From positions 1 through 52,899 of the forward strand of contig JBKHBH010000004.1 of assembly GCA_046542505.1 (NCBI GenBank): a stretch of 52,899 bases of DNA, given 5' to 3'. The position numbers were made by a program. Positions within the stretch are counted from its first letter, which is position 1. Every line of letters begins with the position of its first letter. The DNA is from Thermovirgaceae bacterium (lineage in GTDB: Bacteria; Synergistota; Synergistia; Synergistales; Thermovirgaceae). Positions 15,001 to 18,000 of this stretch are shown in pieces.

Positions 15001-18000
15001 GTCGAGCCCGAAGTGGCCTTTTATGATCACGAGGACAACATGAAACTCCAGGAAAACCTCGTATCCGCCATCGTGACAAGCGTCCTCGAGAATTGCCGGG
15101 CGGAGCTCAAGACACTGGAAAGGGAGACGGAGCCCCTGGAAAGGGTCCATCCCCCATTTTACAGGATCAGCTATGACGAAGCCGTCAAGATGCTTCAGGA
15201 TCTCGGCAACACCATTGAATACGGCATCGATTTCGGCGGAGACGACGAGACGGTCCTGACGCAGCAGTTCGACAAGCCCGTATTTGTCGAGTGCTATCCG
15301 AAAAAGGTCAAGGCCTTCTACATGAAACAGCATCCTGACCGGGAAGATCTCGTCCTCTGCGACGACCTGCTGGCACCGGAAGGTTACGGCGAGATCATAG
15401 GTGGATCCCAGCGTGAGGACGATTACGACCTTCTCCTCTCGAGGATCAGGGAGGAAGGACTCCCCGAGGAGTCCTACGAGTGGTATCTCGACCTGAGGCG
15501 CTACGGAACCTTCATCCACAGCGGGTTCGGCCTGGGAATCGAGAGGCTGGTCAGCTGGATCTGCGGCCTTCATCACATCAGGGAGGCCATCCCCTTCCCC
15601 AGGACCATCTACCGGCTGAATCCCTGAACTTTTAAAAAAGGCCGTTAAAAGAAGCCCCGCATGATAATCATGCGGGGCTTCTTGCGCGCTTCTTTCTTTC
15701 GCAAAGCGGGGTGCTTCCTAGAAACCTTGTTCTATCATGGCTTTCGAAACGCGGAGGAATCCTGCAATGTTGGCGCCTATCACGTAGTTGCCCGGGGAAC
15801 CGAATTCCGCCGCGGCTTCCATGCAGTTTTTGTGGATATCTTTCATAATCCCCTTCAGGCGCTGGTCGACTTCTTCCCTCGTCCAGAAGAGCTTCAGGCT
15901 GTTCTGGGACATCTCCAGGCCGGAAGTGGCCACCCCGCCGGCATTTGCAGCCTTGCCGGGAGCCAGGGTAATGCCCTTTTCAAGCAGGAACTCAGTGGCG
16001 TCGAGGCTGGTTGGCATGTTCGCCCCTTCGGAAACGACGCGACAGCCGTTGTCCACAAGCACTTTCGCGTCATCAAGCTCGAGCTCGTTCTGCGTCGCGC
16101 AGGGAAGTGCAATCTCAGCCTTGGCAAGACCCCAGGGCCGTTTGCCTTCATAATATTTCGCGGTCGGGAATTTCTCCACATACTCGCTGATGCGACCACG
16201 CTTGACGTTCTTGATTTCCATGATGTAGTTCCACTTTTCTTCGTCGATTCCGTCTTCGTCAATGATCGTTCCGCCCGAATCGGACATGGAGATGACCGTG
16301 GCCCCCAGTTCACGCGCTTTCGCGGCCGCATGCTGCGCCACGTTGCCGGAACCGGATATTAGAATCCTTTTGCCTCCGATGGAATCTTCTTTGCTCTTGA
16401 GCATTTCCTCAGTAAAGTATACGGCGCCATATCCCGTGGCTTCGGGTCTGATGAGACTGCCGCCCCATCCTACGGTCTTCCCGGTCAGGACCCCGCCGTC
16501 GTGCAGGTTGGTAATCTTCTTGTATTGGCCGAGCAGGAAACCGATCTCCCGGGCGCCCACGCCGATGTCACCGGCAGGAACGTCAATATCGGAACCAAGA
16601 TGGCGGTAAAGCTCCGTCATGTAAGCCTGACAGAAACGCCGGATTTCGTCTTCCGATTTGTTCTTCGGGTTAAAATTGCTTCCTCCCTTGCCGGCGCCCA
16701 TGGGAAGACCCGTCAGGGAGTTCTTGAAAATCTGTTCAAAAGCGAGGAATTTAAGGATGCTGAGCACAACGCTCGGATGGAATCTGAGGCCGCCCTTGTA
16801 AGGGCCAAGTGCGCTGTTCATCTGAACCCTGTAGCCGTAGTCGACGTCGATATCTCCGTTGTCCCGCTGCCAGGTAATCCTGAAGACCACAGTCCTTTCC
16901 GGAACAATGATCCTCTCGAGTATCCTGTACTTCTTGTACTTTGGATCGCTTTCCACCACAGGCCTGACGGCATTCACAAATTCCGTCACGGCCTGGATGA
17001 ATTCCGTCTGCCAGGGCCACTTCGTTTTGACATGCTTGTCCAGTACTTCATCCACCCAACTCAACAGCAATCCCTCCTGTAAAATTTTTACTCGTCTTCG
17101 GCTCTTCTCCTGCATTTGGGCCTTTTACTGGTGCCTCGGCCCAAGCCGTCAGAACACCGATACAAGTTTATGTGAAAAGAGTATCTTGTCAAGACCGGAC
17201 ACCATTGAAAAAGGAGCAGGGACCGAGGTCCCTGCTCCTTTTTCGCTATGTTGTTTCAGTCTAGACGGCGCACCCGCCTCTAGGCAAAGCATCCGTCACG
17301 GCTTCCAGATAGGTGCTCCACAAAAACCCCCTGTGTTCCACGCGAACGGTATCTTCCGGGAAAGAGAGATCCTCGGGAACCCATATGGTTATATCGCCGT
17401 CATCCACCTTGTTATATCCGTTTTCCACAGGCGGTTTCCCGCTCTCGACGAGAGCAGCGGTCCTGGCGCCTCAACCGGAACCGAGCCTTCTTACTATGAC
17501 ATAGCCCTCTTTCCCCTCTTTTTCGAGTTTTTCACGGGCCTTGTCGGAAATCTGCAGCTTCAGGTCTTTCATAGTCAACCCTCCAAGGGAATGGTTTTTA
17601 TTTTACACTATTGATTATACCCTATGACCGTATAAATTCCAACCCCTGTCGGAAAGAAGGAAGAGAAAATCTTCGGGCGGAACTGCCGTGAAAGACTTTC
17701 CCCCAAGATGCTCCAGGGGAGAAGGCGGTTCCTTCGGGAAGGCGATCTTTCTGGCATGCAGCATCGGCCTCACGATGCCGGAATGCTTCCATTCGGCATT
17801 TGTCTTTTCGTCACCGTATTTCATGTCCCCGATGACGGGATGCCCCATCTGCGCCATATGTACCCGTGCCTGGTGAGGTCTTCCCGTCACAAGTTCGATC
17901 AAGACGAGAGACAGGCGACCATCCGTCTCCAGCCGCGAGAAACGGGTTTCAGAATACCTTCCGCCGGTTTTCACGGTGGAGACAACGTTCCGGGAAGTAT

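Follow-up and report, generated by a model that had tools for sequence, protein, structure and literature searches.

We report that the 52,899-nucleotide stretch of Thermovirgaceae DNA analyzed here (henceforth the window) contains, on the minus strand at positions 17261..17572, a genuine and hitherto unannotated selenoprotein gene, whose 103-residue product belongs to an NF041239-like, CC/Se-type family with an IscA/SufA fold. Reading its in-frame TGA as selenocysteine (Sec, U), together with a family-profile match and the predicted fold, makes it very probable that this is a monocistronic gene whose product is a Synergistota representative of NF041239, the CC/Se motif family of selenoproteins. 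The result is chiefly a well-supported annotation fix, as the family is already catalogued and an orthologue has been published, accompanied by one testable idea on function. For a phylum rich in selenoproteins it sets right a systematic error of gene calling, the public databases carrying the family as C-terminal fragments or as read-throughs with the TGA translated as Trp.

The gene and its genomic context

When TGA is translated as U, the interval 17261-17572 (minus strand) yields 103 residues with a single TGA at codon 34 (17471..17473, minus strand), which places Sec34 in a G-S-G-U motif with no Cys ahead of it. The sole Cys of the protein, Cys101 (17270..17272, minus strand), lies in a tail that is flexible in the model. 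Under translation table 11, in contrast, the interval breaks up into a piece of 33 codons and, at 17261-17428, an ORF of 55 aa that begins with GTG. Hence, the first-pass annotation was right in proposing that gene calls had cut one 103-aa selenoprotein with a GSGU motif and no upstream Cys. A Shine-Dalgarno sequence, GGAGG (17580..17584, minus strand), stands 7 nt ahead of the ATG.

The TGA occupies the G-x-G site in 30 of the 30 best loci, the same count as had been obtained before. Among 84 unique proteins of at least 85 residues, extracted from 104 loci, this column holds Sec in 72, Cys in 7 and neither in 5; the in-frame UGA is thus aligned with Cys in homologues, as is expected of bacterial selenoproteins. 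Conservation at the protein level extends to both sides of the UGA, with identities as low as about 30%. We considered a second Sec at the C-terminus for the four orthologues that end in Cys-TGA; in none of them is there a SECIS-like hairpin or a conserved extension beyond that TGA, and we read it as a stop.

The gene lies between an RluA-family pseudouridine synthase gene upstream (17615..18598, minus strand) and a gene for an NADP-specific glutamate dehydrogenase (gdh) downstream (15718..17115, minus strand). This arrangement is syntenic: in agreement with the earlier statement that an RluA-like gene is always upstream and gdh often downstream, we find the former in 30/30 of the best loci and the latter within 1.6 kb in 19/30, two of the 30 being without flank. 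A sigma-70-type promoter, TTGGAA-17-TATAAT (17614..17642, minus strand), overlaps the rluA stop codon, and a promoter-like site scoring at least 9/12 within 110 nt of the start is found in 27 of the 30 orthologues, as against 3.75% of random windows. Just past the gene is an 18-pair terminator-like hairpin (17206..17245) with T runs on both strands (the tool lists the plus strand; the minus-strand T run was read from the sequence), and gdh is preceded by a promoter-like site of its own (17165-17192). The selenoprotein gene is therefore likely to be monocistronic, with rluA probably not on its own transcript and both neighbors merely positional. Because it has its own promoter and terminator, its position behind the pseudouridine synthase says little on function, and a functional link to rluA or gdh is disfavored on the same grounds; the variation of the gdh types between loci (30-80% identity to the window gdh) also counts against such a link.

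Predicted selenocysteine insertion

A bacterial SECIS hairpin with an 8-bp stem and a GUC loop beginning 22 nt past the UGA is found by folding and family conservation at 17439..17457 (minus strand). With an energy of -11.9 kcal/mol and a spacer of 21 nt, it satisfies all four constraints of the bacterial SECIS model quoted in PMC13188914, namely a loop of 3-9 nt with G within its two initial positions, a stem of 4-16 bp, a distance of 16-37 nt from the UGA and an energy of -7.5 kcal/mol or lower. Taken by itself, the hairpin of the window does not reach significance (z of -0.84 against dinucleotide shuffles; p of 0.055 against synonymous recoding). The support for a SECIS element is family-wide rather than drawn from this hairpin, since 34/72 Sec forms (15 among the best 30 loci) do better than synonymous recoding at a threshold of p<=0.05, as against 0/7 Cys forms. 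Likewise, of 71 Sec forms, 68 retain stem pair 3 and 70 retain pair 4, the corresponding numbers among 7 Cys forms being 2 and 1, and pair 4 exchanges between U-A, C-G and G-C; and the Leu ahead of the loop is encoded by CTC in 61/66 Leu-bearing Sec forms but in 0/5 Leu-bearing Cys forms. A hairpin with a G in the loop had previously been noted in 26 of 30 loci, and one that also has at least 6 pairs is seen in 29 of the best 30; this looser 6-pair test is a weak one, as 4/7 Cys forms pass it too.

The genome encodes tRNA-Sec (tblastn) together with selA and selB above their cut-offs. Thus equipped, the cell would insert Sec in vivo at codon 34, with SelB and tRNA-Sec decoding the UGA under the direction of the hairpin 22 nt downstream. 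By hand comparison, selA is present in 78 of the 79 family-bearing genomes, the exception being an 80% complete genome; this co-occurrence is a weak test, in that 162/201 genomes carry selA and related genomes are not independent. Loss of the machinery was considered as a cause of the loss of Sec in some members and rejected, as selA is intact in 9/9 tested genomes with Cys or site-less forms.

Distribution, paralogs and variant forms

The wide spread in Synergistota reported earlier (46/121 genomes) is upheld in a larger set, with family matches at E<=0.001 in 79 of 201 phylum genomes. A hand count of 117 matches gives 104 with an in-frame TGA, 12 that are stop-free and one with TAA only, which agrees with the prior observation that nearly all matches contain the TGA. 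The named relatives are Synergistales and Thermovirgaceae records. In P0002, P0007 and 17 alignment rows the public gene calls apparently translate the Sec TGA as Trp, and in P0002 a true TGA stop seems to have been read through as well.

A tblastn search of the genome recovers both paralogs that had been proposed: C25:5131-5424 (plus strand; 97 aa), whose GSGUC motif puts U-C at the CC/Se site, and C112:29470-29832 (minus strand; 120 aa), with a GSGUG motif and a hydrophobic leader corresponding to the signal peptide ascribed to it. We also considered a fourth paralog and rejected it, since profile searches of the genome find three copies only. The C25 paralog adjoins a divergently oriented pseudouridine synthase gene, whose product has only 32% identity to the window RluA (L031:4234-4983). 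The leader-bearing paralog on contig C112 (L032:7875-12426) lies downstream of what look by eye to be genes for a [NiFe]-hydrogenase subunit and a maturation protease.

Across the family, a hydropathy heuristic assigns a signal-peptide-like N-terminus to 21 of 84 members, and in most leader-bearing paralogs Sec is the sole thiol. One leader-bearing subgroup (L086, L088, L092, L093, L095, L096, L099-L101, L104, L077 and L078) displays Y-R-x-x-U-G-E-like motifs; L088, L092 and L095 directly precede a 627-629-aa TPP and ferredoxin 2-oxoacid oxidoreductase, and L078, L099 and L101 precede an FAA hydrolase. Another paralog type is marked by G-G-U-R-x-C (L079:3028-3309 and L082:3021-3305), with a dihydroxy-acid dehydratase ahead of L079 and an aldehyde ferredoxin oxidoreductase downstream of L082. 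A divergent subgroup with Y-S-C or Y-T-U (L072, L073, L102 and L103) includes two members, L072 and L103, that adjoin a PilY1-domain gene.

Some loci bear directly on the Sec site. In L037:1441-2257 and L041:990-1776, a Sec copy and a Cys copy occur in tandem, each after a similar promoter-like stretch, the Cys tail being longer and the hairpin weaker in the Cys copies; these Cys copies are possibly a backup for selenium limitation. In the RluA-linked orthologues L068-L071 and L074, Sec or Cys has been lost from the site, yet 3-5 tail Cys are kept, with selA intact. Just before position 2638 of L083 (minus strand) there is a paralog with TAA where relatives show TGA, pointing to a dead copy or an assembly error. 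The branch thus offers a set of natural variants: Sec accompanied by a tail Cys, U-C, a Sec and a Cys copy in tandem within a single genome, forms lacking the site, and exported forms. For a family without known function, these could help tell apart Sec as a cluster ligand and Sec as a redox center in an IscA fold.

An IscA-like fold and its possible function

The AlphaFold model has a pLDDT of 81.3, close to the 84.8 given earlier, with the last four residues below 50. As previously found, its best Foldseek matches are SufA and IscA (E of 7e-4 to 1e-3); a wide structure search agrees, with middling scores (Z of 6.2-6.9 and rmsd of 3.5-4.1 over 88-92 residues) that are well above those of unrelated rows (2.2). 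The structure searches accordingly place the protein in the A-type carrier fold. A profile-profile comparison with Escherichia coli IscA, ErpA and SufA sets U34 on IscA Cys35 with a probability of 90.5% and a pairwise E of 1.3e-6. As this alignment stops at R98/D97, Cys101, just past the aligned stretch, would by extension fall at about the position of the C99-G-C101 motif in IscA. IscA is described with three cysteines, C35, C99 and C101 (10.1101/103283), against which the window protein has Sec34 and one tail Cys. Among the complete orthologues, 10/29 have 2-3 tail Cys, and a second Cys, either beside Sec or in the IscA-like tail, is found in all 29 complete RluA-linked orthologues. In each of the 24 complete orthologues without a Sec-adjacent Cys, the tail contains 1-3 Cys; U-C is seen in each of the 4 whose tail is free of Cys, though these stem from two lineages only, and one orthologue has both.

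While the best structural matches, the equivalence of Sec34 and Cys35 and the tail Cys near the CGCG motif link the protein to the A-type carriers IscA, SufA and ErpA (PF01521), it differs from them in its low identity (about 8-16%), in having one tail Cys instead of C-G-C and in being encoded outside any isc or suf operon. The window protein has no match to PF01521, which 7/47 relatives match weakly at E<=0.1 (best 2.3e-5). When solved structures were searched by sequence with the family profile, a single chance match came up. A canonical A-type carrier was found by PF01521 in none of the 201 phylum genomes, as against 10/14 controls; a search of titles and abstract openings returned nothing relevant on the absence of A-type carriers in Synergistota.

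On this basis we advance the following tentative mechanism. The product would be a small protein of the A-type-carrier fold in which each chain supplies a pair of soft ligands, namely Sec34, at the site of IscA Cys35, and a second Cys, which would be the tail Cys101 in the window protein and the Sec-adjacent Cys in other lineages. A homodimer would then present four ligands with which to bind and pass on either a metal ion or a labile [2Fe-2S] cluster; in this phylum, no canonical IscA, ErpA or SufA was found. We favor such a carrier because U34 falls on Cys35, because a second Cys occurs in all 29 complete orthologues and because PF01521 is found in 0/201 phylum genomes versus 10/14 controls; the Fe-S enzymes that adjoin some paralogs also count for it. 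Against it count the two ligands of the window protein versus three in IscA, the position of the Cys tail outside the aligned stretch and below a pLDDT of 50, the lack of Fe-S genes among the orthologue's neighbors and the 5/84 members with neither Sec nor Cys at the site. As the family was not found in 122/201 phylum genomes, it is not a universal carrier, and the leader-bearing paralogs, most of which have Sec as the only thiol, are left unexplained by a carrier of clusters in the cytosol. All told, identity and mechanism together, i.e., an NF041239-family selenoprotein acting as a dimeric metal or Fe-S carrier, fall slightly short of an even chance of being right. Doubtful, though worth stating, is the bolder proposal that the branch is the only IscA-fold protein of the phylum, a Sec-ligated Fe-S carrier that replaces the A-type carriers through Sec and a Cys, adjacent or in the tail, that each of two subunits contributes, with repeated emergence of exported single-Sec paralogs by which the fold is brought out of the cytoplasm. 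Were a Sec-ligated carrier to be established, it would be the first function for the CC/Se family.

The second Cys found in all 29 complete orthologues would serve equally well as the resolving residue of a thiol/selenol redox protein, in which Sec34 acts as the nucleophile, the tail or adjacent Cys resolves the selenenylsulfide and the exported paralogs use their lone Sec outside the cytoplasm. The signal-peptide-like N-termini predicted for 21/84 members by the hydropathy heuristic are consistent with this, as is the CxxU motif given for the family representative in Table 1 of a 2026 review, which also holds most uncharacterized selenoproteins to be redox proteins (PMC13188914). Nonetheless, the structure searches reveal no thioredoxin fold, the tails with 3-5 Cys resemble metal-binding tails more than a single resolving Cys, and none of the five window neighbors tested is a reductase partner gene. 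A redox role is hence on the unlikely side, though a serious contender. The variable Cys-rich tails, which grow where Sec is lost, could alternatively belong to a heavy-metal or metalloid buffer or a selenium store that does not hand over to client enzymes, and its own strong promoter, patchy distribution and exported copies would suit such a protein. The conservation of the carrier fold and of the Cys35-equivalent site speaks against this, as does the lack of a metal-resistance gene among the 27 neighbors scanned, and we regard it as improbable.

Relationship to the CC/Se family and to HesB-like selenoproteins

Returning to the identity of the protein, NF041239 is its only family match with E<0.1, and no Pfam match was found. 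The score of 39.7 bits is 0.3 under the cut-off of 40, and residues 5-87 cover positions 2-84 of the 91 in the profile, which corresponds to the single domain of about 90 residues that characterizes the family. The paralogs score 31.1 and 33.3, and the range of 31-39.7 bits and absence of Pfam matches noted before are thereby reproduced. Among the best 30 orthologues, chosen by their likeness to the window protein, 15 score 40.0-49.0 and the others 28.6-39.7. In a set of 65 extracted proteins, partly picked by an NF041239 search and hence biased upward, 62 match at E<=0.01 and 26 reach 40 bits. From 144 family-profile matches in 1.84 billion proteins we assembled a wider set of 99 full-length, apparently non-phylum proteins plus the window protein; 93 of these 100 match NF041239 at E<=3.3e-10, i.e., at about cut-off strength.

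A tree built on 89 columns, with an arbitrary root and an outgroup taken from the profile's own matches, unites 83/84 phylum sequences in one clade with a local support of 0.82, within which orthologues above and below the NF041239 cut-off interleave. The cut-off thus splits a single clade. Judged from these sequences, 'subfamily' seems a fair label for the Synergistota branch as a lineage. Accordingly, the separate GxGU subfamily of the first-pass annotation stands as a lineage, whereas its novelty does not: the branch falls within the CC/Se family, which is already catalogued, with 15/30 best orthologues at or above the cut-off and an orthologue in print, as the caveat that it might be counted inside NF041239 had anticipated.

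With NF041239 the protein shares a full-length profile match, its size and the placement of Sec at the CC/CxxU site. It departs from the family in that the Synergistota branch has no Cys ahead of Sec, the motif listed for the representative being CxxU (PMC13188914, Table 1): in 0/72 Sec forms do the five residues upstream include a Cys. Cys tails at the C-terminus are usual in the branch and rare among outside members, and paralogs with signal-peptide-like N-termini occur. Yet CxxU is not defining in practice. An Aminobacterium sp. orthologue with G-G-G-U and no upstream Cys, with about 44/103 positions identical to the window protein in a hand alignment, is printed under the CC/Se family name in supplementary file 1 of PMC12013277, where it is the only entry under that name. 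The outside members, too, vary at the site (CC, xC, CxxW and GxW). In the 100 rows of the wider set the U34 column holds C in 68 and W in 17, so that Cys or the presumed product of a Sec codon is usual there; to go by the sequences, the 17 W rows are probably cases of TGA read as Trp. As several of them show G-G-G-W and lack an upstream Cys, the motif without Cys is probably not restricted to the phylum. Titles and abstract openings yielded no description of exported CC/Se members, some of which could be listed in BSepDB or in supplements.

Could the branch instead be a separate, uncatalogued selenoprotein family that merely resembles NF041239? The clade of 83/84 phylum sequences at a local support of 0.82, the sub-threshold scores of the window protein and its two paralogs and the consistent lack of the listed CxxU would be compatible with this. 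It is largely refuted by the 15/30 best orthologues at or above the cut-off, interleaved with those below it, and by the member already published under the CC/Se name (PMC12013277); moreover, the downstream fragments carry PF28096, as remarked earlier, with precomputed matches on 4/4 close homologues. We therefore consider a separate family very unlikely.

The HesB-like selenoproteins (TIGR01911, HesB_rel_seleno; NF038090, IscA_HesB_Se) belong to the same fold class, and those of Desulfosarcina, as listed in supplementary file 1 of PMC12013277, combine G-G-U with a Cys-rich tail. In contrast to them, the window protein lacks the U-x-G-P motif and matches neither profile at E<=1; among the 65 proteins, NF038090 has one weak match (17.1 bits against 85) and TIGR01911 none. 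What the HesB-like selenoprotein of Methanococcus does is stated in PMC11097638 to be unclear, and the main text of PMC2398784 mentions neither Moorella nor HesB.

The RNA candidates MRC-7 and MRC-8

Table S1c of Stav et al. 2019 (PMC6429828) lists MRC-7 and MRC-8 as medium-ranking RNA candidates of Thermovirga lienii, of 384 nt at NC_016148.1:1679608-1679991 and 569 nt at NC_016148.1:871863-872431, without assigned function. Each has 14 examples, from Synergistetes only, with a pseudouridine synthase upstream and a glutamate dehydrogenase downstream. That such a context yielded RNA candidates, and that the window hairpin is by itself not significant against shuffles, might suggest that translation really stops at the UGA and that the conserved region is a non-coding RNA or a pseudogene, a reading that can hardly be upheld given protein conservation on both sides of the UGA to about 30% identity, the 7 relatives with Cys in the UGA column, a confident predicted fold for residues 1-90 and a match to a protein family, NF041239, that runs across the UGA. 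Searches of Rfam at E<=1 brought up nothing near a gathering score.

The earlier proposal that the family accounts for both candidates is likely correct for MRC-8. In the Thermovirga sp. record L118, whose genome has four family members, the rluA-gdh gap of 579 nt contains the selenoprotein gene, and the MRC-8 region measures 569 nt. From context and gap length, with table rows rather than sequences compared, MRC-8 probably is the selenoprotein gene. For MRC-7 the proposal is a matter of inference, a plausible reading being that MRC-7 is a paralog and that its homologues collapsed onto those same sequences. As an orphan RNA candidate, MRC-8 can thus probably be retired.
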